From Xylographa opegraphella (taxonomy: Eukaryota): DNA of 64,000 bases. This document shows positions 4,861 to 56,393 of this stretch, in pieces. The notes under the pieces are model-generated. The model was given only the letters and a program-made list of their open reading frames with translations, did not search any database and was not told where the DNA came from. Made by a program: the position numbers and the translations under genes. The stretch covers positions 62,001-126,000 of the forward strand of contig JALDZX010000014.1 in the NCBI GenBank assembly GCA_022813865.1, written 5' to 3'. Position 1 is the stretch's first letter. The number at the start of each line of letters is the position of its first letter.

Positions 4861-5329
4861 GCTGAATCAGTATTTACGCCTTCTCGAGTATGAGAAGAGT
4901 GGGGTAGGTCCAAATGTCTTCTTTGTTGTTTGCCGAATTTCCCATAACGCTGCCCATTCATGACCTTAAGAAAACATGTCGTATGCAGTGCATCAGGCGC
5001 CTGCCGAGGCATTCTGCCCGTGCACGGCATTGTGCAAGTGCCATAGGACTAGTCCTACTGGGACCGGCCCGCCGCTCATCATTGCCTTAGTGGGGTTCCG
5101 GAAGATCCTTTTCGCGGCTTCTCACATAGGTCTTCTCGTCTACAAGAAACTCAGCCTGGACCCGTATTGTGAACCCAACCGTTACATCTCTTCTTAAAGA
5201 TTTTATCCCTGGCTTCTGTAGATAAAGCCTGAGATAGCGTCACCATATCAACAGCGGGGATTCGCCGTCTTGTGCTTCCTCACCCTTGTGACGTTCTGTA
5301 GCTGTCTGGGCCCGTAATAAAACTAAATA

Positions 5330-37804: not shown

Positions 37805-40056
37805 GACGAGCAGAGAAAGTACGGAACAGCACCAAAAGTACAGGCGAGCAAGTTCGGAGACTTCATGGTGGTTGAAAGCCAAAGCACTTCATATCTGTGA
37901 AATCCCTGGTCTCGAGCAACATGGATTGAATCCTTTGGAGCACGAACAAGAACGCCTTAATCACAGAACGCGGGACAGAGCAGCGAGGAGGGCAAGGAAT
38001 GACCGAGGGTCGGGTATTTTTCTGATTCGCGCGCTTCTCGGATGTCAGCTTTGCTGCCCCTGGCTAAAGACATGCCGCAGGACTGGCAGCGGGCCCCGGT
38101 ACCGAGAGCCTGGCAAAAGAAATCCATCGGGAATATAGACACGCAATGGTGTGGTATGGAAATGCTGTCGCTCAAACACAGCGCCCACGGCCCACGAAGC
38201 AAGGCGCTCGGCCGGTGATCTGACCGCAATCACAACAGAATTTAGCAAACAGAGTTGTTGATCTTTTGGTGGCATACTCCGTAGGACGCCACCGTGTGAT
38301 AGCACGGGTTGGCGACATAGTGTTAGTCAAATCGAGTTCAGAAGCACACGAGTAGCATTGCAGGTCCGAAGGACGACATACACGACGCTACCGCACGCAC
38401 CTCTCGGTGCAATTGCAATCACTCTGGAGACTCGGTGAACCTTGGTGCAAGCATGCAATTTCTCTTGGTGGCACTGGCCAGCCAATGACGAGATGGATCC
38501 ATCAGCACCACAAGCAGCTAGCGGGCGATCGAGATCCAGGGTGAGGGCTCAGAGATGTAAGGTATAGGGTATGTACTGTGTACACCGCACGAACCGTACG
38601 GTAAGGTAAGGTACCTACTAGGTAGCTTGTGAGCGCATGTCGGGATATCCGTGCGTGCACGTGGCAGCAGTAGCGGCAACCTGTAAAATCGCTGTAATAT
38701 CGCGCGTAAGCCAGATACAGCTAGTGGACTCATGTAATGTCTTGTCCTAATCGGGGTCAGCTCCGACACTAGCGAGAGCGGCCTTTGCTTTACCCCGTAC
38801 AAGATCTGAAAACCCTTACAAGTTCGATGCAATATGATGCGAGAGCTCTGCCTACTTGGTAGCTGAGGCTTCCTTACGACGCGGTCTAATCAGATCCTGT
38901 CGTGCGCGCTTCGTACATCTGCCAACGTGAACTACCTCAAGCTTACAGAGCACGAGTGCCGCCCCTGCGTACGTAGCACAAACTCATGGCTCTTACATGC
39001 TTGCTAAAGGTCGCCACGGCACGATCAATGCAGCGTGGTTGGCCCGACCCCCGGAAAGATCTTTCAGATGCATGCAGCAGAATCCTTGGGATTCATGAAC
39101 TTCGCTCCAAATTTCCTGTTTCTCCTTGACCTGCTTTCAGCGCTGTTAAAGTCACTGTCTCTCTCCAGCTTGGTTTTCACGGTCATGGCTTTTCTTATTT
39201 GAAAGTGCCGTCGTGGTTCTCGTGGCTTTTCTTTCATCCTTGCAGGATCGATAGCCGCGTAGCCACCGAATACTGTGCGTCGAACATGCAATACAGCATA
39301 ATCGCGCCAGCCGTCGGCCGCCGTCAACGTGGCACAGTAAATCCCGGAACATGGGCCAGGCTGATGTAACGATCCGATCGGATTTGAACAAGACTCGCCG
39401 AGATTTTGGAACAGAGGATGAGTCTGCAAGATGGATTTAGCATCACAAATCAAGTACGGTGGCTGGTACACCCACAACAGAAGTTTCGGAAAATTAACCC
39501 GCAGCCACGCGGATTCGCTAATACATGGACATGCCATTTTCGACTCTGGGTCTTCGAGTCTTCATCGCTTGTTCAGATGTCTTTGTCCAAGAGCTGTCAT
39601 GTTCTCGAAATCATTGATGTATGTCTGTGTCATTGTCACCAGGACAGCACTGTGTCAGGATGACTGTAATCCCCACGCAGGCCGAAGACAAAACCGTGAC
39701 AACAGGCCCCATCTCGTCAAAGACATTGTCTTCTCTCGACAATCCCACCGGACAACCGGACAAAGACATCCACACACAATCCGCTTGTCCGAAGAACACA
39801 TTGTCATTCCTCCTCTGTCTCCGCCAGCACCGAGTACAAATTCCACCACCCCATCATCATCTCCTCTCCCTCTTTCCTCGCGCTCCTTCGACCTCTCCAG
39901 CCCTGACCCAAAACGTAAGCCTCTAACCAACAGCTCCAAACCCACTCACCCACCCACCGTCCAGCCGGCCTACAGCCATCTGTGACCCCTCCGCCATCGT
40001 CCCGCACCTGCTCGCCTCACCGACCTCGCCTGCCCGTATTCTCACAAGCCGCGACC

Positions 40057-40263
40057 ATGTGTGAACAGTGGGACTACCCCTACCAATGCGGCCACAGCGC
40101 CGGCCGCGCCGTGCTCATCAAGTGCGAAGCTCAAAAGAACGCGGAGCGTACTAACTCCGGCGTGACATGCCGCATATACCAGTACACCGCCAGCAAGAAC
40201 TATGACTGCCCTCTGTGTGTGGCTGCGAAGCAGCCACAGCAACAAAACGGTAGGAGCCGCTGA
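40057..40263 (+). CDS. 68-aa Cys-rich microprotein A (MC-x8-CGH...CxxC)
   Basis: MCEQWDYPYQCGHSAG...KC...TC...DCPLC; start context ACCATG; C/T-rich leader and G/T-rich trailer. Confidence 0.65.
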   Translation: MCEQWDYPYQCGHSAGRAVLIKCEAQKNAERTNSGVTCRIYQYTASKNYDCPLCVAAKQPQQQNGRSR

Positions 40264-41003
40264 TATGTTCCGCAGGGGATCGGGGCCGATCTGGCCCGTA
40301 GTTTTCGGAGAAGCGAGTGGAACTCGAGGGCTTAGTTGGCTTTAGATAAGGGTTCGCTCGGTAGCTGCGCGACCATTCGTTTCAGCGTGCTTGCGTGCTT
40401 GCGGGTTTCTCTTTTGATTTTGGGGGTTAGGAGGAGGGGATGGGGATGGTAGTGATTGTAGATAGGAATGTAATTGGTTTCCACTTGTATACGATTTGAA
40501 CCGTAGGGGGTGACGTGAAATGATGATTATAAAAAAAGGAGAGTAAGCTGATCAACAGTTCATAGGAGTGGTATTCAGTCTTCTGCAATTTATTTTTTTA
40601 TTCGTATAGCGATCGACGTGCCTATTTGTGGTGTACAGTCGCTCGAGCTAAGCTCCTGAAATCGTCCTTTTCTACCAAAATTTTTCTACCAAAATCCAAC
40701 CCTTTTCTTTCCCAGGCGCCACAACGGATATGGATATCTTTCCCGCACGTTCACAATAATCCGACGTCAGAAGATCAACGAGATAACACATCACGTATCA
40801 CGAACGACCCGACACCTTCTCAAAAGGCCAATCGAGCAACCGTAAAACAATCATCCCAAATTACATAAAAACTCCATTCCTAACCTTCACCATCACCGAC
40901 TTTGCCAAATAACCCGGAGACTATAATCCCACTACGACCGAGATTGGAACAGGCCACTATTCCCCCCCTTACCGCCCACCATCGCTGGATTATTCCTGGC
41001 AAG

Positions 41004-41204
41004 TCAATTCTTCTTCTTCGTGAACCACCCTTTCACAGTCATTGACCACCCTTTGAGTTGGCAGCTGATACACGGCCCGCTCAGGGCTTCGGTGATGGTG
41101 GGCCGAGGGTCCGAACATACCCTCTTGATGAGGTAGGTGTTGCACTCCTCGCGGACCACGTAGTCGTCGCCACACTCGTAGCGGTAGCGGCGGACGGTGC
41201 ACAT
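41004..41204 (-). CDS. 66-aa Cys-rich microprotein B (MC-x8-CG...CxxC)
   Basis: MCTVRRYRYECGDD...EC...VC...PCISC; start context AGCATG; long C/A-rich leader. Confidence 0.65.
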   Translation of the reverse strand: MCTVRRYRYECGDDYVVREECNTYLIKRVCSDPRPTITEALSGPCISCQLKGWSMTVKGWFTKKKN

Positions 41205-41694
41205 GCTGGTGAGGAGCAAGACGAGGTTGAGGGGAGGGGGAGTGGGGTGGGTGGAAGATTCGGCTGGTGGCAGTTGGTGGTGCTGCGTCTGTAGTGGTTC
41301 TGTGTGATGGTTTTTGGAGAGTGTGTTGAGTGAGATGATGGATGCTGTTCAGGTGCTGGGTGAGAATGTTGGTCAGGTCCGGCTGACGAGAGATGGCTTT
41401 TGTAGGAAGTAGAAGTGGAGGGCAGATGATGGGGGAGAGATAGAGAGAGCAGAGTGGGATTGTTGCCTTTTGAAAGAACTTTGTTGAGTTGTTGTAGGAG
41501 AGCGGACGGAGTCGTAGACAAAAAAGCCATTGTGAATGTGGCAAAGGCTGATTCAATCTATCGTTAATGCTCCCTTTGTGACACACTTTTGAAAACGTCA
41601 AACAAAGACGGAGAACCGAGAAGCGTCCGCTCCGTCGGAGGACTCCAGCGTCAGTGATTGCAATGATCTGTCATATGGTACAGCTTGCGGCCGT

Positions 41695-42267
41695 TCAGTG
41701 CCTGGCATGCAGGACACTGATATCTTCGATACTACCATCACCTGCCGCAGTCCGACCGCCATCTTGCGTTAAGCCAGCGCTGAATTCGAAGTCCTCCCCA
41801 ATCAACTTCTCAATAATCTTCGCCTTACCCATAGCTCTCTTCAGCCGATCGTCGAATTCGGAGACATCGTCCTCCTTGTTCTGCGTCGACAGACTCTCCA
41901 ACTCCACCAGGGCATGGAAAGTCTGAACATGCTTTGCCAAGCGGACGTTGGCAGCTAACGGCGGCAATGACTTTGATATCGATGCCGTAGATGTCGATTC
42001 ACGCTGTGACTGCAGGTTCTTTGGGTCTTCCCGTACGTCTACCGGTAAATGTGTCTTGGCTGTATCACTAGACAGGCGACTGGCCCAGACTGTGGACCGC
42101 CCGTGCAATTTGCCCATCTCCATGAACTTCTCGAAGCCCTTCTCCAGGCCGAAGACGCGCCCTTCGATATGCCCGGCTCGAGTGCCATCAGCAACACCGA
42201 GAGCGTAGCCTTCGTCGTAGAATTGCGTTTCGAGGTTCAGGACACTATCAAAGGGGTCCTCCTCCAT
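41695..42267 (-). CDS. LTO1: Lto1/ORAOV1-family (Yae1_N, deca-GX3) adaptor for Rli1 Fe-S maturation
   Basis: DPFDSVLNLETQFYDEGYALGVADGTRAGHIEGRVFGLEKGFEKF contains the GX3 repeat characteristic of the Yae1/Lto1 family. Confidence 0.8.
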   Translation of the reverse strand: MEEDPFDSVLNLETQFYDEGYALGVADGTRAGHIEGRVFGLEKGFEKFMEMGKLHGRSTVWASRLSSDTAKTHLPVDVREDPKNLQSQRESTSTASISKSLPPLAANVRLAKHVQTFHALVELESLSTQNKEDDVSEFDDRLKRAMGKAKIIEKLIGEDFEFSAGLTQDGGRTAAGDGSIEDISVLHARH

Positions 42268-42556
42268 CCTCACAGGTTGATGGAATGCTCAGACAATTTA
42301 AGCTCGATCATTTATAACTCCAGTTGCAACGGCTATCCAGGAACTCGGGTCATGAACCTTAAAATTTGCAGATCCCGGTCATTTGTGCCCACACTCAAAA
42401 GTGACGTCAATTCTACAATTCTCGGATGTTCTGTTGACAGCTGTGCAAGAGATGCGGTCGCAGAATTACACGCGATTCCACTCCTACCCTCCGTAACGGG
42501 CTCAGAGTAAACGGACAACCACATTTTTGATACGCACACTACTCGTACCAACTACA

Positions 42557-43602
42557 ATGCCGGCCACTATGGCTGCAACACATCAGCTCAAGGCGGAGCA
42601 CCTATTCTCCGTCAAGGACTACGTTTGTGTAGTCACAGGAGGCGGAACTGGTATTGGTCTTATGTGTACTCAAGCGCTTGCTGCCAATGGTATGCGACGG
42701 CCTCATCTACCTTTGCCTAACCAAAGCTGATAGTGATGCACGTGCAGGTGCCAAGGTCTATATCACCGGTCGTAGAATGGAAGCTCTAGAGAAAGCTGCC
42801 AAGGCACACAGTCCTTCAGAAGGCGGGCAAATTATACCGTACGAACGTCCGAGTTGGCTGCTGAAGCGGTTGGCTGAAGCTCATTAGCATTGGACCTTGT
42901 GATGTCACCTCCAAGGATGATCTCGAAAAACTTGTCAAAGAGATTGGAGCAAAGGAGAAGCATGTCAACGTGCTGAGTAAGAGTCGGGTGCACGAAATTG
43001 CAATATTCGACTGACGTTCTCCAGTCACCAATGCTGGCATCTCGGGTCCGAAAGCCGAACCAGATTCCGAAGACGCATCTGAGCTCAAGGACAAACTGTG
43101 GAATTTGGAGGATTTCTCTCAATGGTCGGACACCTTCACGACAAATGTTTCAGCAGTCTACTTTACCACCGTGGCCTTTCTGCCTCTGCTACAAGCAGCG
43201 ACGAAGGAGTACGGTCATCGCCAGCCCTCGGTCATTGTTATCTCTTCCATGAGTGGCATCATGCGCGAATCTCAAGGTCATTTCTCTTACAATGCTGCCA
43301 AAGGTGCCACAGTCCACCTTGCCAAATTGATGTCAGCCGAGTTTGAAAAGGCCAAAATTCGCGTGAACAGCATAGCTCCTGGTTACTTCCCGAGCGAGAT
43401 GACAATGAAGGAGAGTAACGAGGATCAGAAGACGCATATGCCAGATGAGAAAGTGCAGGAAAAAGGACACGTGCCGGCAGACCGACCAGGTAGCGACGAG
43501 GAGATGGCACAGGCAGTCTTGTTCTTGACCAAAAATATGTATGTGAATGGAGAGATCATCGCCGTCGACGGAGGCGTGCTCAATATGGTAGCGGGACGAT
43601 AA
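42557..43602 (+). CDS. Short-chain dehydrogenase/reductase, 4 exons
   Basis: VVTGGGTGIG, NAG, catalytic S..YNAAK, RVNSIAPG and YVNGEIIAVDGG. Confidence 0.93.
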
Positions 43603-44543
43603 GCTGCCTAATCTGTGGCGACTTGAGCGATAAAGTCCTCGGAGTCGGACGTATCTTCTATTTCTCAAGATAGAGTTCAACTGGACAATGGTTTATTGCA
43701 TCAACTTGGGAATGACATGTTGAACCACAATCAGCATACACTCACGTAAAGACTGCTGGGAGATTTGACCGACTCGCTGATTGAGCCAAAAATACGAGTC
43801 CTATTCCACTTTGGTTAGTCTTAGGGCCCGTGCACAACACCTTTCCTGTATCCACGTCCTTCGAGCCTGTAATAACTCAGCATGACTCCGAGGATCTCTT
43901 ATATAGGCGCATATTGCGTTTATCGTCCATTCTATATGCTTGATGGTCAATCGCATCTGTACCAATATCTTTTGCGTCTAGCAATCTGGGCCATGATGAC
44001 TAGACCCGAAGGCAAGGAGACAGAACGTTCACTCTGCGACCGACCATAAGGAGTGGTCAGTGGGGAGTGTTTGGTGTAACGAGGTTTTTCCCTGTTTCCT
44101 ATGCGTGCACGCATTAATCGGGTAATCTGGGAACCAGTACCTGGGTTGGATGGAGTCCTACTGCATTTGGTAGGTGTCAGGGGAGAGAAGGGATTCGACT
44201 CGAGTTTTAGGTAAATGGGACAAGAGGCTGAACGGTGGCCTGTTCGATTTTATAGACACTCCCCCCACAGCTCCGAAATACGATTATGAGACCCTCTGGG
44301 AACTCACCTTGCTGCTTGAGGTAGCAGCATCGGCATCCACAGCGCGCTCGACAATCAAGAGTACTCGATTCCATTTCGAAAGCGGTCCATTTCTAACATT
44401 TCATAGTCCACTATCAAAAGCACCAGCTCAGTTCAAATAGATTTCTTCAAATGTTCCAATGCAGCTCACGCTAATTGATTAAGAAAGCTATGTATATTAA
44501 GTATATGTATCTTCCCCCCCTCTCATTGAAAAATCCGAGATAT

Positions 44544-44717
44544 TCATCTCGGGAAACATACCTCCTCAGGTTTCTTTCCGCATAGCATGTCGCATGACGG
44601 GCATCTTACTGGCGGGCCATGGGGCAGCTCGCCTCTACACTGCCAACATAGATAGCCTGGCAGCTCCTGTCGGCTTAAAACGGGACCTTGCTCTGTTTGA
44701 ACATTGCATGGCGGCAT
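44544..44717 (-). CDS. ~57-aa Zn-ribbon-like microprotein E
   Basis: MPPCNVQ...YLCWQCRGELPHGPPVRCPSCDMLC has two CxxC pairs; start context CAAAATG. A GTATGT near the end may be an intron donor. Confidence 0.45.
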   Translation of the reverse strand: MPPCNVQTEQGPVLSRQELPGYLCWQCRGELPHGPPVRCPSCDMLCGKKPEEVCFPR

Positions 44718-45797
44718 TTTGATTGTTAAATCGAATGATACGTTAGTGTAGAGGTGCGTATGAGCGTCCGTGGGCTGGGCAGCCTTCTGTGTAGGCAATG
44801 GACTACTTTCTTCCCCACCCTCGGAAAGACAGCGCGGCTGTTCCTGCAAGGTGTTGAGTACAAGAAGCAGGGCGGTGCCTTTGTCGATAGACAATGGTTT
44901 TGTGGCACGGTAGTTATGACAGTTGTTAGATTGTGAAAGCGCCTTTTTCTCTATACCAACTTGGGAACAACAAAGCTTTCTCATTAAAGGCCACATCGAG
45001 AGTCGTTCCGAGTGGGAATGGTGGCCATTGTTCGTATCAAGCTCGCTGTCCTGGCAGTTCTATTTCGTCGTGCGAGGTGTACATGCTAGCGATGTATACA
45101 CGCTGGCCGTAGAACAGGACATCAGGAGTGATATCCACATGCTCATGCCTCGCTGTCTTTATGCCCTCACAACGGTTCGGCTGGGAAGTGGAAGGGTAAG
45201 AAGTGGCAACAAGAGCGGGGTAGGAAAGAGCGAGTGAGATAAGCGGGAGGTAGAATGAAGAACGATTTGGGAAGGGGAATTTGCGATTGATCAAGATGTG
45301 CACGTGCCAAAGGTGATAAGCTGACTCGGGAGAAATGAAATCTTTGAGCTATATCGTGCGGGATTGAGGAGCCGTGGTGGCGAATCCAGTTGCAGTTGTA
45401 GCGAGTTCATGCTTCTGCATGACCACCGTAATATGCCCAATTCTGGCCTAGATATCGTCACAGAACGCGATGCATTGAGAATTGAACAATGTAGAGGCCG
45501 ACCAATCATTCATGGTCTGCTACCATTGTTAAACAGAAACAATCGTGCAGAGCGCTTCGTCGTCCCTGGGCTCCCGCTTGTAATTTTAGCAGACATGTAT
45601 GGAAGATAATATCATGGTCGAAACACTGAGGTCTGGTTTAGTTCATAGAGCCGCCGAATCTGCTGTCAAGGTACCAACAACACAGAATTGAAGGATCCAA
45701 AAGATAGAATTACTCAAAGCCAGCGCGATTTCTCATGCGTACAATCGTAATAACTGGTCTCGATGAGGGGTGAAGAATTTAAGTACAAGGGTATCAT

Positions 45798-47001
45798 TCA
45801 GGCATTCTTGTTGACAAGGACCTGCTTCGCCTTTGAACCCGCTTTCACCTTCTCGTAGCGGCGATCACAGCCCTCTCGTCCTGCAGCTCGACCTCGTCAA
45901 TGGAGGCGGGTGGTGCTAGTACACCGTCTTCGAATCCCTTCTTCAGCTTCGCAAGCTCTTGTACGGCTTGCAAGAAAGACACAGGGAGGGTGTTGATGCC
46001 ATGCATCGAAAGATTGTTGCGGTAGAAAGCTAGGGCATTAAACGTGAATAGAAACCCAGGGCTCTTGCTCGCGATAATGATAACACTAAAAGCCATCAGT
46101 AACGGGTATACACGCAGAGTTCAGCGAGGCCATATCGTACTATCGCCCCTCAGGGGAGAGTGCCTCGAGGGACTTCTTGAATAGCGTAGTGTCACCTACT
46201 GTGTCAAGGACGGCGATAATTCCTTTGCCTGCGGTTGCTGATTTGATTTGTGATGGTAGATCTTCCGTAATGTTGATGAAGCCATCACCGCCTTTTCGAG
46301 ATGTCTCGACCGAAACAGCCCCAGCAAGTTTCACTAATTGCTTGCAGGCGGTGCCGACAGCACCAGATGATCCTGATATTATCTCAGCGGCACATTTTAA
46401 AATGGCCAAAGAACCCAAACGAGATGCAGCCTATAGGTACTAGAGAGCCTAAATAGAATACAGCGATGAAGCAAGAAACACCACGAACATCGAGTGTGCA
46501 ACCATCAAGTATGGTGACATACCCAGAATGAGCACATGCTCTCCCTCTTTTGGCGCGGCTTTCCCAACCATCATCGTGGCTGTTAAAAACCCTACACCGC
46601 AGGACGCAGCTTGGAGGAAGCTGAGATTACACGGCATCTCCATCACCGATAGATAGTCCTGGTGGACGGTCACATATTCTGCATGACTCCCGTCTTGCTC
46701 AAACCCGTTTTGGCCGCCCGTGCCCCAGACCGATTTGCCAATGTACTGTTTAGGACCAATGACGACAGTCCCTGCAAAGTCGCGTCCTGGGATGCGTCCA
46801 TGCTTCGAGAAGGTGTGTTTGCGGGAAAGCTCCTTCGACGTTCTTCTGGTCAGAAGGATTGATGGCAGAAGCATGGACACGGATGAGAGCATGGCCGGGA
46901 GCAGGGGTGGGAATAGGCAGCGAGGTCAGGGAGAGGGCGGAAGCGACGGGGCCGGCCTCGGAGAAGCGTAGGACCGTTTGTGTCTTGGCAGCTTCCGTCA
47001 T
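45798..47001 (-). pseudogene. MDR-superfamily (quinone oxidoreductase-like) gene with two apparent frameshifts
   Basis: LIRVHASAINPSD..., RIPGRDFAGTV, DGSHAEYV and ILG/SSGAVG. Frame breaks at ~46815 and ~45858 are not explained by introns. Confidence 0.75.
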
Positions 47002-47756
47002 TGTTCAGCTGAGTTTCGTTTGATGGGTGAGAAATAGGTCGATGTGATATCGATCACAGGTCCTCGCTACACTCTCGCACACGCAATGTCTGAAGAGGTT
47101 GCGGAAAAATCCCTCCTGGCTCGCTATAATCAACGTCGATCTTGCAGGGCTGAGAAGCCGCTAGCGTTGGCTAATCGTTGTGCAATCCGTGTAGTCTACA
47201 TAGTACAGCTTACGGAGTACTTTGTAAATAATGTATGGTATGGTGCACCGTGTCAGGCTACCCTTTTACTGCAGTACTCTAAGGTAATTTGTTTTTCTCT
47301 ATGATATACGTGTAACATCTTAGATAACTGTTGATGTAACGGTGCACATCTTATTTCTTTAGATGCACTTTTAAAATGTATACGAAAGCTACCCGTCGTG
47401 AACAAACAACAGGGAATTCCTCGTGTAATACAAAAGCGAGAGGCCAAGTCCATATCATCCAAACAGTCGCATTTTCAGTCTTTTGTCGTGATACGATGTT
47501 AGCGCCGTCGCGAATCGGACGCTGTCTCGCTTACACACAAGATATCGGCGTTACTCATCACGCTGCAGAATGGATCATCAGCAGCACATTTGGGATCCAG
47601 AACAGAAGTGTGAGCATGGCTAAGCGAGCTCGGTTTCCTCGTAGCAGGTTGAGCCGCTTCAAGGCTTGTGAGAAGCCCTGCACATCATCTATCATTTGTC
47701 ATCTGCACTCTTTCATCCCAACCGCAACTACATAATCATCAATTGTATCTTTAGAG

Positions 47757-48976
47757 ATGAGTCGTTCATCTGGACAAGGGGCACCAAAGATGGCCGAAAG
47801 CACCAGCCTGCCCATACAAGGTGTCCATCCTCCGTTGCAGGCGCCGACCTTTAGACAGCTAGTGCCAAACCCCGCGGCAACTTTCAAGGGCTCGTTCGCC
47901 CCGGGGAATAGACAGGAAGACCGTCTTCTGCCATCCAAAGTAGGAACCGCCGAGCTCATACGGCTTTACTTGACTGAAGGATGGAGGGATTCCTCCATTT
48001 ACAAATCTGGTGTAGGTTGCTTCCTTGTTCGAGTCGTTCGAGGGAAAATTTTATCTAGAGTGGACTGCCGCTCCCTTTGCTGTGTTTCTTTTGACACCCT
48101 CGGGAGCTAATCTGGCTATCAGTTCATTGAGATGTTTGGGGCAATGTCGTTGACCTTCCTTTCAGCCCTCATCGATATCACGATTGGCAATTTTGGCACG
48201 AGTCAGGCCGCCGCTTATGCTGGTGTGACGAATGTCTTCTTACTATCTCTTTTAATATATGCTATTTCTTCGTCATCGGGAGGTCATGTCAATCCGCTCA
48301 TCACATTTACCACTGTCACCACTGGTCTCACTCCTCTCCCTAGAGGGACTATTTACATGATTGCTCAGACGGCTGGTGGTGCGATCGCAGGCGGTTTGAT
48401 CAGAGGTAGCTTTGGATATGAAATGACGCAAAAGTACGGAAACATGATCGGTACCTTTATGGCTCTGCTGACTGTTATCCAGGATCAATGGTGGAGGCTG
48501 TTTCTTAAATACGGATCAGATATCTATCGGACAAGCCTTCATAATCGAAGCAACATCTTGTTTCGTACTTCTGTATGTGGAAAAGCCTCCTAATATTCTC
48601 AATGCTGCTTACGAGTTATCTGCAGTTTCCTTGCCTTTGGAGTTGGTCTTGATCCCCGGCAAGCCGAACTTTATGGTCAGCTAGGACCTTTTTTTGTTGG
48701 CGCTACATTGGGTCTTGTCAGCTTCGCAAGTGCAGGGATTGTACCAGGCTATACTGGGGCCGGTATGAATCCGGCAAGGTGCTTCGGCATGGCTGTGGCA
48801 AGAGGCGAGTTTCGTGGTAAGATCCTTTGGTACTCGTCTTAATAACGGTACCTGAAACGGCTTTCTACTGACAACCACTAGACCAATGGCTGTGGTGGTT
48901 CGGGCCATTGACGGGGAGTTTGGTTCAGACTGCGGTCTACTATGCTGTACCACCATACCATACCCGTGCCAAATAG
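47757..48976 (+). CDS. MIP/aquaporin of the X-intrinsic protein (XIP) type, multi-exon
   Basis: First box SGGHVNPL, loop-C INGGGCF, second box GAGMNPARCFG. The last exon reads DQWLWWFGP...PPYHTRAK*. Confidence 0.85.
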
Positions 48977-51163
48977 AATCTGGATCTACCGGCGGACGAC
49001 CATGGCCGAAGGCCATCGGATACTTGCTACACACTCGACTCTGCTATTTGCCTCATTTCCAACCCAATAGACATGTGCAGAATATTACTTCAACTGGAGC
49101 TGGTCTCTCCCCTACGGACGATAGCATTTTTCAACTATAGACCTTACTTTGCCGATCATAGTAGCATTGACAATCATTGTACTTTTAGCTCGTCAAGCTA
49201 TCTGAAATATCTCAGACGTGATTCTCGGCCGGAATCTCCGCTATTGCAGATTTCACAAAAAGCTAGGACGGACGTATGGAATTCAATTTCACTACCGTCA
49301 TACCGGTCTCTCTAAATCCCCACGACGGTATTATTTTGGAACAATGTGAGATCACTTCTCAGATCTATCTTACTAGTAGGAAATTTTTCGTAGCTTCATC
49401 CATGCAAAACCCGGTACATTGGCCTGGACCAGTGTACCTGGGGAGGTATCGCAAGGTGGAGCCGCTAACGGCTCGCCTATTAACCCTAACAGCCGAACTG
49501 CTCGATTATTGCTCACCAACCTTGTGACCATCGCTGGCCCCTGGACCCCGCTGCTTGCCCCTGGACCCCGCTGCTTGCCCAACCGTTCCGCAGTACTAGG
49601 TTTCCGCTTTTCCGTGGGCCGAGAATCTGTAATGGCGGAATGCTTTGCTATGATTTCAGCGTAGCCTTTTTGTAGTATATCTATGAGGCTGGGGCGCTTT
49701 GTGGATCTCGCCGTCTCCGTTGATGGGTTTACAGCAGCGCCGATCGATACACCGTCAGCGTTCTCAAGCGAATGCGATGGTTCCTTCGTGACTGATAGGC
49801 CATCATCGCACTCGAAGCTGTCCAACGTGTTGCGTTCGGTGTTCGATTGGACCGAAGAACTTGTAGGTCCAGGCTTATCGTTGGGGACCCGGTGCTCCGT
49901 GACTGCTGGAATCTAGGTGAATCAGCTTTGATATTTCGCGATTCTCGACTCCACATTCTTCGTGGCCTGAGCTAATCTGATTGTGCTTGTTTCGCGGACG
50001 ATGTTAAGTAGCGTCGGAAAGTCTACAATTCGTGAATTTCCTGAAGCTACTTTGGAGGTATAGTCCCTGCCTCATCACCGATCTGAGAAGTGACTGAGGC
50101 TGACATATTGTTGAGGATGCTCGGTGGATAACCGAAATGGCAACGACGTTGATTATAGAGTCAGTCGAGCAGGCTTGAGAAGTACTGTGGTAGTTAAGGT
50201 ACCTCCCGTACCTTACGTTGAGTCGTGTTAGAGTTGTCATGTAAATAAGCGAGCCGTTAGTGGCTCCACTTTGGGAGCTTGATCGGCGAGCCAGTATGGC
50301 TAATCTAGATAGAGCTAGCATTGTACGGGTACAGCCGTTAGTGGTAAAATGGCAAGATCAACGTCAACGTCAACCTCGAATACCAAAGAATACCATCTCC
50401 TCTCGACTCCGTACACATTCGGTGCCGTGGATACTCGAATCTCAGGAATCAACTTTCCCAATCTATCTGAACATCAATACTGGTGCACCGCCTACTACTA
50501 GTACTACTATTCAATTGATCTCTCGTGGCTCGTCATTCAAAAGACCCTTCCAATCAATAGCATTTTCCCAATGTTAAAAACCAATAACGTGAATCCTGTT
50601 ATAAAGCGACTCTCCAACTGCAAAGTTCTCTCCGCAATATTTTTCGTTTATAGTTATAGTGATCCATCGGTCGTCTTTGGTCTCCCACATGTCCTACTTA
50701 TAGCACGTTCATCCCCAGTCGCCTTTGTGTGACATTGGCAACTAGTATAGCACTCGATTTCTTTTCACATACCACTGCCTCCGTAAGTATTGTCTCTGTT
50801 TTCAAGTTCAGTCTCATTCTGAGACCAGGCCACTGCACGTTTCCTTCACTGAAGGCACGAACAGCAGTGAGTAATTGGGGAAGGCGAGTACCTTCGTTGT
50901 CTGGTCTTTGTTTGCAACAGTCGTCTTTCATTATGCTCACACCACCTCTGCAAAGCTAGACTACCCGCAAACGCTCCGTCGCCCCAGCGGCTTTTTTCGC
51001 CTCCCGCTGTATCGAAATCACTTCCATATCGAATCACTTGTTTGAGTTCCTGTCGTCTAGTACTTTAGCACCTCCATATCCAAGACTCCTATGACCTATC
51101 TTCTTCATCCCAATCACAAACCCTCTGCATCTCCCATTATCTTGTCTGCTCCATACCCATCAT

Positions 51164-51388
51164 ATGTATCCGAGTCCTCTGCTTGCGTGTACATGCACCA
51201 CTCAAGGCTGCTTTTACTCTGATCACAGCGTCGCAGTGGACTACTGCGCAGCTTGTTTTGAGCACCGCTGCTGCCCGGAATCAATGCAGGAAGCATCATC
51301 GACTCTATTACAATCGTGGGCATCAGATGTGGACGTACGAATCCCGAGGGTAGTAAGGGTAGAAGACTTGATCACGGCGCCGAAGTAG
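51164..51388 (+). CDS. 74-aa Cys/His-rich microprotein D
   Basis: ACTCTTQGCFYSDH...YCAACFEHRCCPES; pyrimidine-rich leader. Confidence 0.45.
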   Translation: MYPSPLLACTCTTQGCFYSDHSVAVDYCAACFEHRCCPESMQEASSTLLQSWASDVDVRIPRVVRVEDLITAPK

Positions 51389-51753
51389 CGACGAAAGGAT
51401 TTTACCTAGCGTGAGCGGGTGACAATGGGAGGTGTACGGTAGGTCCCGTAGGTCCCGTTTAGAGGCTGCTTTTCGTTCTTTGAATGAAAAGAGAGAAAGA
51501 AGCTTTGATGTGAAGGCTTTTCATATTCATTATGTGCCCTTGTATGGCAGTATATGAGCTAGCGCCCGCCTATTAATCCACATCTTTTATAATGCTCGTA
51601 CTCTTCGATATCAACCAAGTATTATACCACTTCATCCTCATCCCAAACCAATCAACCACCACAGTACATTACATCTGGGAAACCCATCTCCAGTCTACAA
51701 CACCACCTCCACCACATCCAATCGCATCGTACCTCTCAAAGGCCCGGTCACCA

Positions 51754-51957
51754 ATGTGCCTAACAAAATTATGGTACTACCGGTGCGCGCTCAGCGGCTG
51801 CCGGCGCGACGCCGTCTCTAGGGAGACCGTCTTCTGTTTAGACTATGTCAACACACGTAGGTGCTGGGCAGGCACCCATTATGCCAATTATTACTTACGA
51901 GGCGACTGCCCGACGTGTGAGATACAGTACCCCCGCCAGGATCGTCGAGGCCGGTAA
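51754..51957 (+). CDS. 67-aa Cys-rich microprotein C (MC-x8-C...CxxC)
   Basis: MCLTKLWYYRCALSGC...FC...RC...DCPTC; C/A-rich leader and G-rich trailer. Confidence 0.6.
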   Translation: MCLTKLWYYRCALSGCRRDAVSRETVFCLDYVNTRRCWAGTHYANYYLRGDCPTCEIQYPRQDRRGR

Positions 51958-53328: not shown

Positions 53329-54368
53329 GTTGGAGTGATAGGAGTTCTCCCTATTCGGTGAGATGGGTTAGTGTCAGCAGATGATGGCGGTGAAGTGAAA
53401 GGAGAGAACGTGGGCCAGGATGATGCAAAAGTGCTTGAGGAAAACGAATGGGGTTGAGAAGGTCTCACGGCTTGGGATCGGTTCCGGAGTTCCCTTCATG
53501 GTCTGCTGCTCTGCCGACTGGAGTGCTTGTCATTGTATACAATTGTATACCACGAAGGGTTTTGGGTTGGAGGATACAGGCACGAAACTCCGATCAATAA
53601 TACAGGATGGACCTGAAATTCGAGCAAGACAACGAAAGAAGATTTGGGACCACAGAAGCTTGCCAGTACTTTCCGTGAATACAGAAGCATCAGCACGATA
53701 TGAGCGACGGAGAGAGGGGACTTTATAGCAGGCAACGCAAGCTCGACAGCCCACAAAGGGAGACATGACAGAATTTCTGCACTTTTGAGCAGTGGATCGA
53801 AGCGTATGTGAAGGATGTAAGAGCACGGGACAAGAATTGATGAGATGCACGCTCGATGGACCGTCCGGCCTCCCATTGAGGGTTCCTGCAATCTTCTTTT
53901 CTTGCACTCGGGCTGGAGGCCCACACTCGCAGGCGTCGAGCGTCGATGGACGTACGGGACTGGCTAACGACTAGAGAGAGACGCCAATAAGGGTGATCCC
54001 TGCTAACTTGTACCCTACTGGTCAGCTAGTACCCTACTACTGTAATAGAGGTGCAATATGCAATTGCACTTTCAAAGGTTGTCTAAGATATCGTCCCTGG
54101 ACATGTATACACAACTCGAAAAGTGCATATGCATTTTCGTAGCTCGGTAAGATGTAACAGCATAGGTATCTTGCTCTACCCCGGACCGGCTTTTATTCAT
54201 CTGCGTGTATTATCACAACTATAGTAGAGCACATGGCCGTACGTTGTTGCCTGGGTTGCCTTAAACAGCTAATACCCCCCACCAATGCAACAAGGGCAAT
54301 TCTGCGCTCTGTTTTCCACAAAAGTTTCTCCTCGACGATCTGGACACCATTGATCCATCCACAGCATC

Positions 54369-56393
54369 ATGATGCGCCAACCATGGGACGACGTGAAAGA
54401 ATACATCAGAGAATATTACAAAACTCAGAACAAGTCGCTCGCAGAGTTGGAACAGCTGATGATTTCAAAGCACGACTTTCATAAATCGTATGTTACCAAA
54501 TTGACATGCTACTTGCATCAGGCTGAGAGCGTTTGTTAGACGTCGCTCCTATATGAATAAGATTGTAGAATGGGGCTTCGAGAAGAACAAACGGCACAGA
54601 ACAAGATCAAGCCAATCTATCCAAGGACGGAAGCGTCCTAATATTCATGCGTCTGGCTCGCATACTGCAAATGCCATGAACAGTGTCTCTCAGTGAGTAC
54701 TCATTCCAATTTCAAATGTACACGCCTTGTTCATTGTTGCAGACTCAGTCATTCCGTGGTTCCAGCACTTTCGCCTCTCTGGACTCATGGCCAATCGTCA
54801 TGGCCCGTCACAGAATTCATGGAAAGTCCTCCGAGTACGTTGGATAATCCCTACGCCAACTATCCGTCATTGCAGATATCACCACCAAGTTCCACAATTG
54901 GCACCATCGCCCATCAATCTTTACAGGCGGGAGAGACAGTAGAGGGCACGCGGTATATCCACGGCCAGACTCCTCTGCATCATGCTGCACTCGAGGGAGA
55001 CCTGGAACGGGTACAAGCGTTGCTTTCGAGGGACCATTCATTACACGAGATAGATGATTATGGTAACCAACCTCTTCATTACGCCGCAGAAAAGTTTTGT
55101 ACTGGCATTATTGACCTCCTATTGAAGAATGGTGCGAACGTCAATGCAAGAGGAGCGGGAGGCAGAACACCACTGCATTTGGCGTTGCGATCGGCGAAAG
55201 CTGTGAACAGGCTTCTACGGGAGCATCCTACTAGGACGGCACACGATGACGAAGGTAACAGCGTACTTCACACCGCGCTAGATGTGTTCTCCACGACTTC
55301 GAATGATGCTGGCATGGTTCGCACGATTAAGAAGTTGGTTCTTTCCGGATACGATGTGAATACGTGCAACCGTGCCGGGAGAACGCCTTTCCACATGGCA
55401 TGTGGCTCGAGAAACAAAGCCATCCGCGACATTCTGGTCCTGTTCCTTGACAACCAAGCCAAGACTGCTTTCCCAGACCCCAACAATAAAATGCCATTCC
55501 AGATTTTTCTCGATGGAATGCATGAGCCATGGTACTCGATCGGTGACGAAATTAAGCTGGTTCAGCTTTTTCTACACTGCGGGGCCGATCCCAATACATT
55601 TTGGAGGGACTCTCCATTACTCCTTACGGCTCTCATTGAAATACCCTCTTATTCGGGACTCCTAGAGAGTCTTTGCGAGACTGCTGACATCGACAAGCTT
55701 GCGGCGAACGGAGACTCACCCTTGCACATCATTGCTAGGGATTTTATCACGGGGGACACTGCCCTGTGCAACATCCTTCTACGACGTGGAGCCAGTCCCA
55801 ACCAGATCAATAAGTCTGGCAACTCTCCATTGATGCTGCTATCGATGGACGAACATGATTATAGCCTTACAATCGGTATGATGGCCTCTCTTATACAGGC
55901 AGGAGCCAATCCGATGCAGAGGCATCGGGACGGGGAGCTTCCGGTGTATCATGCATATCGATCGCTCAACTCGGGAACAGATAAGCGGCGCGAGGTCCTC
56001 AAAGTTTTGGTGGAATCCTACATTGCCAATGATACGGTAATGGAAGAAAGCAGAGTCTACCCAAACGATCACATCTGGTGGGTCGAATATCGGCTTCTTC
56101 GCAGAAGGAAGACCTGTTGTGGCGAAGGATTGAGGCGCCTTGCGGCATGTGCGCATTACTTACCTCATGATATAGCCAAGGACTTCTCGGACCTCCTCCT
56201 TATTGAAGCCGCACATGACATCTTAACTGACTTCAAAGAAAGGTTTTTGACGCACAAGGCCGGGTTTGGCCTCGAGACAATAGCAGGGAGGGAATTCCAC
56301 GATGTGATTGTGGAAGTTTTGCGGGAGTGCCTGCGGATGAAGCTGAAAATCGAGCACACATGGTACCAGCTGCTCCTGGAGTTTTTCGATTAG
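54369..56393 (+). CDS. Clr5-domain plus ankyrin-repeat protein, 3 exons
   Basis: Introns 54488-54539 and 54693-54742 give WDDVKEYIREYYKTQNKSLAELEQLMISKHDFHKS/RRSYMNKIVEWGFEKN (Clr5-like), fused to multiple ankyrin repeats (GQTPLHHAA, GNQPLHYAA, GRTPLHLA, GDSPLHII). Confidence 0.85.

Follow-up and report, generated by a model that had tools for sequence, protein, structure and literature searches.

A stretch of 64,000 nucleotides from Xylographa opegraphella (contig JALDZX010000014.1, positions 62,001 to 126,000 of the forward strand; hereafter the window) contains three short open reading frames (ORFs) of nearly equal length, each of which begins with Met-Cys and carries a series of spaced Cys residues closed by a CxxC pair. 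The question raised by this locus is whether such ORFs are genes, whether they form a family, and what their products could do. As argued below, the family is real, large and uncatalogued, and most likely functions in the manner of a zinc ribbon to which an N-terminal site has been added. The reading as a whole, in which an old, large family of small intracellular proteins of the zinc-ribbon type in filamentous ascomycetes provides regulatory adaptors or inhibitors, can be given a probability of roughly 55%.

The three Met-Cys ORFs of the window

The first ORF, P0001, is located at 40057..40263 on the forward strand (68 aa; putative ligands C2, C11, H13, C23, C38, C51 and C54). The second, P0002, lies at 41004..41204 on the reverse strand, in convergent orientation with P0001 (66 aa; C2, C11, D13, C21, C30, C45 and C48, with a Trp/Phe/Lys tail), and the third, P0003, at 51754..51957 on the forward strand (67 aa; C2, C11, C16, C28, C37, C52 and C55). 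The last one is an enlarged-knuckle variant, with an additional Cys five residues past Cys11. Translation verified the coordinates, strands, lengths and Met-Cys starts of all three ORFs, as well as the eight-residue gap between Cys2 and Cys11, the signatures YPYQC, YRYEC and WYYRC, and the terminal CPLC, CISC and CPTC, all of which had been reported in a preliminary description of this DNA. The Cys series which that description had proposed as metal ligands also stands, while its six ligand positions must be replaced by seven, in view of His13 in P0001, Asp13 in P0002 and the extra Cys in P0003.

The pattern does not look like a product of chance. The regular expression proposed for the family matched three times in the window, at the three ORFs and nowhere else, and not once in any of 200 Markov shuffles; even the shorter MC-x6-[YF]-x-C alone occurred three times, against a shuffle mean of 0.115. 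The leaders are C/A/T-rich, as had been noted, with a G content of 0.19, 0.10 and 0.11, and an ATG is absent from the preceding 100 nt. The G+C content at third codon positions (GC3) is 0.75 in P0001, compared with 0.49 at the first two positions (GC12), and 0.83 in P0002. P0001 has an A at -3. In P0003 this position is a C and another in-frame ATG precedes the start, at 51592, so that its start is the least certain of the three.

Family census in the genome

The 24.7-Mb genome (241 contigs) contains at least 31 intact family members, namely the three in the window, 11 found with the CGH pattern, 15 from fetched candidate regions and two adjoining a known member; this number is a lower bound, as only part of the pattern matches were fetched and intron-split genes escape the search. 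The pattern MC-x6-[YF]-x-CGH gave eight matches in the genome and none in a reversed control. Looser Met-Cys patterns returned mostly chance matches, and candidate regions were hence inspected singly: the 80 regions fetched yielded 15 clear members, three atypical ORFs and 62 rejections. The loose motif occurred in six of the 901 Met-Cys ORFs of shuffled DNA, where profile scores went up to 10.3; the high scores of the members can be set against this value only in part, most of them having been in the profile. Two ORFs fitting the loose expression, L224 and L244, were dropped as not family-like (profile scores -1.0 and 4.4), and yet L243 (-3.0) was retained for its Cys spacing and its likeness to P0003. 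Also kept outside the 31 are the atypical ORFs L045, L053 and L235 and two frame-broken copies, L008 and L009. In the latter two, the second half is in a different frame, with the break (at about position 1501) falling inside the core, and they may be either pseudogenes or assembly errors.

The family had been described as dispersed. It is indeed spread over the whole genome, but it is also locally clustered: eight of 27 pattern-found members lie less than 2 kb from another one, against an expected 0.11, and none of 20,000 permutations reached the observed number. The partners of two tandem pairs share 32-33% identity, which fits local duplication and decay of some copies. Three diverged members are also arranged in tandem within 3 kb at the L118 locus (positions 4986, 6414 and 7960; G000:C112:108085-111059, forward strand). 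No further members were found in the 150 kb flanking the window.

Gene status

Twenty-nine members were set against 110 Met-Cys ORFs of the same DNA which do not belong to the family, using features which had played no part in the selection of the 29. An A at -3 was present in 25/29 members but only in 27/110 non-members, whereas an ATG within 100 nt upstream was found in 4/29 members and in 88/110 non-members. The G content of the leader was 0.12 in members and 0.26 in non-members, and the difference between GC3 and GC12 was 0.18 and 0.004, respectively. These features indicate that the Met-Cys ORFs of the family are almost certainly real genes, and the proposal of the preliminary description that they are genes forming a family is borne out by their gene-like start context, their codon bias and the presence of orthologues elsewhere.

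The start itself is highly constant. Among the 120 listed homologues of L050, a conserved member described below, Met precedes Cys2 in all the 116 that include the first Cys. Of 21 in-frame look-alike rows without ATG in the genome, only one had the complete spacing; this was discarded as a long Cys/His repeat protein, presumably of the NF-X1-like type.

Homologues, conservation and range

A profile search against 1.84 billion representative sequences yielded 49 hits (E<=0.001), each of which carries the motif. P0002 and P0008 are both 66 aa long and share 62% identity, with every ligand retained and 12 of 18 residues identical in the Trp/Phe/Lys tail; P0008 is an orthologue of P0002. P0026 contains an orthologue of P0001, its Met-Cys segment being 54% identical to P0001 over 68 aa. 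A word-based homologue search with P0001 returned no match. P0003 has a weak paralogue within the genome in L243 (30% over 54 aa, E 3e-4), which has a similar enlarged knuckle.

The member L050 (101-430 at G000:C220:339070, forward strand; 110 aa, with a helical-hairpin tail) has no name, is strongly conserved in several ascomycete classes, and offers the best experimental entry to the family. It has 273 homologues, the named ones from lichen-forming and dothideomycete fungi and nearly all recorded as 'hypothetical protein', and it is 51-94% identical over nearly the full length to homologues from several ascomycete classes. Thus, the rapid divergence attributed to the family holds between paralogues only, single lines such as P0002/P0008 and L050 being conserved. 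One homologue of L050 is labelled 'septal ring factor EnvC', a label that finds no support here.

The relatives on record at NCBI belong to Coniosporium, Xylographa, Xanthoria, Aureobasidium and others, and are mostly 'hypothetical protein'; the neighbours in the ESM Atlas are unnamed Ascomycota clusters (scores 0.91 and 0.97) that do not have a Pfam domain in common. The 98-aa record P0054, which has the same sequence as L007, bears the label 'chromatin modification protein VID21'. The label is unsupported here and is probably a mis-annotation driven by a glutamine run.

Outside fungi, a motif scan returned nine viral and 54 prokaryotic stretches, and a full in-frame member in just one of these 63. 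This member (L215/L217, G001:C376) is on an 8.2-kb contig which also encodes a fungal Mdm12 and comes from a bacterial genome bin; it was read as contamination, the bin apparently containing fungal DNA. The L050 profile matched none of the viral contigs, and the sole locus from a metagenome scan (L112) was a chance match with no Met-Cys ORF. In these searches, the family is a fungal one, with members in filamentous ascomycetes.

No Pfam family was found for the three window proteins, while other members gave scattered weak hits (best E 0.04); NCBIfam holds no family model for the members, and sequence searches of the Protein Data Bank (PDB) returned no relative (best E 0.54 and 0.12). No description of the Met-Cys family was found in the literature, although it may be mentioned in subscription papers or supplements outside the coverage of the search; a passage of PMC4410428 concerns phytochelatin synthase and not this family. 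Because neither Pfam nor NCBIfam models the family, and neither a solved relative nor a description in the papers searched was found, fungal annotation in effect overlooks a sizeable class of conserved genes, even if zinc microdomains as such are of a known kind.

Putative ligands and cellular location

The core contains seven putative ligand positions, C2, C11, H/C/D13, C21, C/H30, C45 and C/H48. In an alignment of 52 rows, every row has M1, C2, C11 and C45, whereas C21, C30 and C48 are present in 51 rows each; position 9 is always Y, F, H or W, and position 13 is mostly His. Among the 29 members, position 13 is His in 17, Cys in four and Asp in two, while the homologues of L050 have Asp13 in all the 95 aligned and one further homologue (P0141) has Cys13. 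His is found in place of the fourth Cys in L021, L044 and L046, and in place of the last Cys in L043 and L044. Exchange of Cys, His and Asp is the behaviour of metal ligands rather than of disulphide partners.

The location of the products bears on the same point. The best nine-residue hydropathy in P0001, P0002 and P0003 is 1.09, 0.12 and 0.89, respectively, so that by a hydropathy scan of these three proteins (no dedicated predictor was used) the hydrophobic core of a signal peptide is missing, in agreement with the intracellular location previously proposed. The family resembles fungal small cysteine-rich secreted proteins in the size and the high Cys content of its members, in the diversity of its paralogues and in its clustered birth-and-death, and the members might be disulphide-bonded effector-like or antimicrobial peptides secreted by an unconventional route. 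However, small secreted cysteine-rich proteins have a signal peptide, which the same scan did not reveal in the window proteins, and such a function would agree poorly with the exchangeable ligand positions, with the CxxC spacing and with the strong conservation of some lines across classes; we regard it as very improbable. Because of the Cys/His/Asp exchange and the missing signal peptide in the window proteins, metal ligands are favoured over disulphides.

Predicted structure and proposed zinc sites

The AlphaFold model of P0002 (predicted local distance difference test score, pLDDT, 78.8) consists of strands 3-8 and 14-19, a helix at 22-27, a strand at 36-40 and a second helix at 46-50. The model of L050 (pLDDT 89.1) has elements matching the core of P0002, even though separate alignments are behind the two models, and the profiles of the two proteins align with 91% probability. 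Judged from sequence and secondary structure only, C11 and H13 are at the turn between strands 3-8 and 14-19, and the CxxC is at 45-48.

A zinc-binding fold is quite probable, and there are probably two zinc sites per protein. Site A would be formed by C11, H/C/D13, C45 and C/H48, a knuckle-plus-CxxC zinc site of the bL31 or PerR kind. Site B would be formed by C2, C21 and C/H30 at the opposite end of the hairpin: the turn at 10-13 would place Cys2 opposite Cys21, and Cys30, just past the short helix, would be brought to the same end. Two tetrahedral sites call for eight ligands, one more than the seven side chains provide. The simplest candidate for the eighth is the free amine of Cys2 once Met has been removed; otherwise, the fourth position of site B may be left exchangeable, and water, a bridging thiolate or a residue of a partner protein are other options. 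The amine ligand is a tentative proposal, which would explain why the domain occurs only at the N-terminus.

An alternative role for the N-terminal Cys must be considered. A Cys N-degron pathway is known in plants and animals (PMC11668491, PMC7876777), and the Met-Cys start of the family, with Cys strictly at position 2, would suit a substrate of such a pathway, in which Cys2 would sense oxygen or nitric oxide and thereby set the lifetime of the protein, instead of being a metal ligand. The genome gave no PCO/ADO match (PF07847), which is a weak argument as the assembly may be incomplete. In the models, Cys2 opens a confidently predicted strand (pLDDT 88-90), with constant spacing to the other Cys residues, whereas Met-Cys degrons are normally flexible. 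This explanation is thus considered quite unlikely, and Cys2 is retained as a putative ligand of site B.

Comparison with known folds

Foldseek returned nothing at E<=0.001 against the PDB and BFVD. In the fold search, the top row was BofC (Z 3.2, root-mean-square deviation, rmsd, 5.6), which has no evident ligand correspondence, and the matches of a VIA fold search with the L050 model were dominated by the helical hairpin rather than by the core. The N-terminal zinc ribbon of bL31 likewise has a hairpin knuckle with close ligands and a distal CxxC after the third strand; the matching chains in PDB 4v8a, 5o60 and 7n2c, which we take to be bL31, gave Z 2.2-2.4 and rmsd 3.2-5.6 over 39-51 residues. 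Unlike the family, bL31 is a bacterial ribosomal protein with one zinc and no N-terminal Cys site, and it shows no sequence match to the members. The C-terminal Zn(Cys)4 unit of PerR, Fur and Zur (PDB 2fe3, 2xig and 4mtd; Z 2.0-2.2, rmsd 5.2-5.8) has the same order of hairpin, helix, strand and CxxC, but its knuckle is CxxC and not CxH, and it is part of a regulator of 140-150 aa with a DNA-binding domain. For the winged-helix DNA-binding domain of Fur/PerR there is no room in proteins of 66-68 aa whose core begins at residue 1, and no Fur Pfam match was seen among the members searched.

A treble clef consists of a knuckle, a second hairpin, and a helix whose first turn provides two ligands. 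With two knuckle and two helix-start ligands it resembles the proposed site A, but the family has a single strand before the helix in both models, has the three-Cys site in addition, and gave no significant fold match. The spacing of the Gal4-type Zn2Cys6 domain, CxxC-x6-C...CxxC-x6-C, is unlike that of the family, and no such Pfam match was obtained.

A further reading is that the proteins are nucleic-acid- or ribosome-binding zinc ribbons acting as small regulators of transcription or translation. The top weak fold matches (bL31, PerR, Zur, Fur) are modules that work in such machines, the core has a median charge of +2 and many tails are basic, and in L050 basic and aromatic residues are nearly invariant. 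However, charge is not conserved and may be as low as -7, there is no attached DNA-binding domain, no surface residue is common to the paralogues, and the Z scores are near 2; this reading is accordingly judged unlikely.

Metallothioneins have a very high Cys content, no aromatics and little secondary structure. The members, being small, cytosolic, multi-copy and rich in Cys and His, might be zinc or copper buffers or chaperones of a similar kind, and a three-ligand site could pass metal on. Nevertheless, they differ in having only 6-7 Cys in 66-68 aa, an aromatic residue or His at position 9 and an ordered sheet in the models; orthologues also keep non-ligand residues, and the zinc- and metal-response words considered were not enriched upstream (4/29 against a background of 0.31, and 14/29 against 0.40). 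A buffering role appears improbable, and a structural role of zinc in a ribbon-like fold is preferred.

Several observations must be set against this interpretation. The likeness to bL31 and PerR/Fur zinc ribbons is weak (Z 2.0-2.4, rmsd 3-6), and the proposed assignment of the two sites is based on sequence register and secondary structure. Position 13, counted as two past the second Cys, is a non-ligand residue in six of 29 members, although some of these, such as P0003, have a later Cys; the third Cys is absent from L002, and the homologue searches found no outside orthologue of P0003. Acetylation, which may occur at an N-terminal Cys, would make the amine unavailable as a ligand. Finally, Met-Cys is preceded by an extension in 24 of the 116 L050 homologues (3-67 residues) and in 19 of the 49 profile hits. 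Because their length varies so widely in the L050 set, these extensions are read as mis-called starts, even if some could be real. As to the expectation that gene finders would miss the family, several relatives are recorded as 'hypothetical protein' and are thus not missed, although the 19 hits bear the extension.

Possible function

The only features common to all paralogues are the ligands, with no shared surface residue. Core charges of -2 to +7 occur in this genome and of -7 to +8 in the database set, with the median given above, and the tails differ between orthogroups but are conserved within them, that of L050 being the helical hairpin. This combination fits a zinc-held scaffold with differing surfaces, and hence small regulatory adaptors or inhibitors, a function that the proteins may well have, although we propose it with reserve. 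Two zincs would hold a scaffold of 50 residues with almost no hydrophobic core, and the variable loops and orthogroup-specific tails would provide each paralogue with a separate protein or membrane partner. The three-Cys site B could be a redox- or zinc-sensitive switch.

A more far-reaching and rather doubtful extension is that dozens of two-zinc paralogues per genome constitute a hidden regulatory layer. The processed N-terminus, through the amine and the thiolate of Cys2, would close a labile zinc site, so that the folding of the proteins, their lifetime and their binding to partners would depend on the excision of Met, on the supply of zinc or on the oxidation of thiols, and part of the family could be under the control of one developmental transcription factor.

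Upstream sequences

A cluster of TGTC/GACA cores, a putative promoter element, is located on both strands at 39528..39820, i.e. 240-530 nt upstream of P0001. It comprises 19 cores in 300 nt, compared with a window mean of 2.3, at most nine in the other fetched loci and a maximum of 14 in 5000 shuffles, and it is the densest such stretch in the approximately 460 kb examined. Within the cluster, 39576-39588 and 39758-39770 form a perfect inverted pair of 13 nt, and no unusual RNA folding was seen (fold z -1.5). It looks like a homotypic cluster of binding sites for a putative factor.

The words ACAATG/AACAAT occurred 32 times upstream of the 29 members, against 13.3 in GC-matched windows and 12 downstream, and were also more frequent than in 64 rough control promoters. 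They were nevertheless rejected as a shared promoter word, having been picked post hoc and being unenriched in seven held-out loci (0.43 vs 0.54 per site), five of which are atypical or broken.

Neighbouring genes

The neighbours in the window encode a DUF7703 membrane protein, a Yae1_N protein, a short-chain dehydrogenase, an aquaporin and a Clr5-plus-ankyrin protein, and suggest no shared pathway. The Yae1_N-domain gene (41695-42267, reverse strand), which we take to be Lto1-like, has the same orientation as P0002 and terminates some 490 nt upstream of it. A Cys-rich stretch of 57 codons with two CxxC pairs (44544-44717, reverse strand) is the 3' part of a 150-aa ORF which does not belong to the Met-Cys family and has no Pfam match. 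At 54233-56393 on the forward strand, a Clr5-domain exon is followed by an ankyrin-repeat ORF, and the two are probably one spliced gene.

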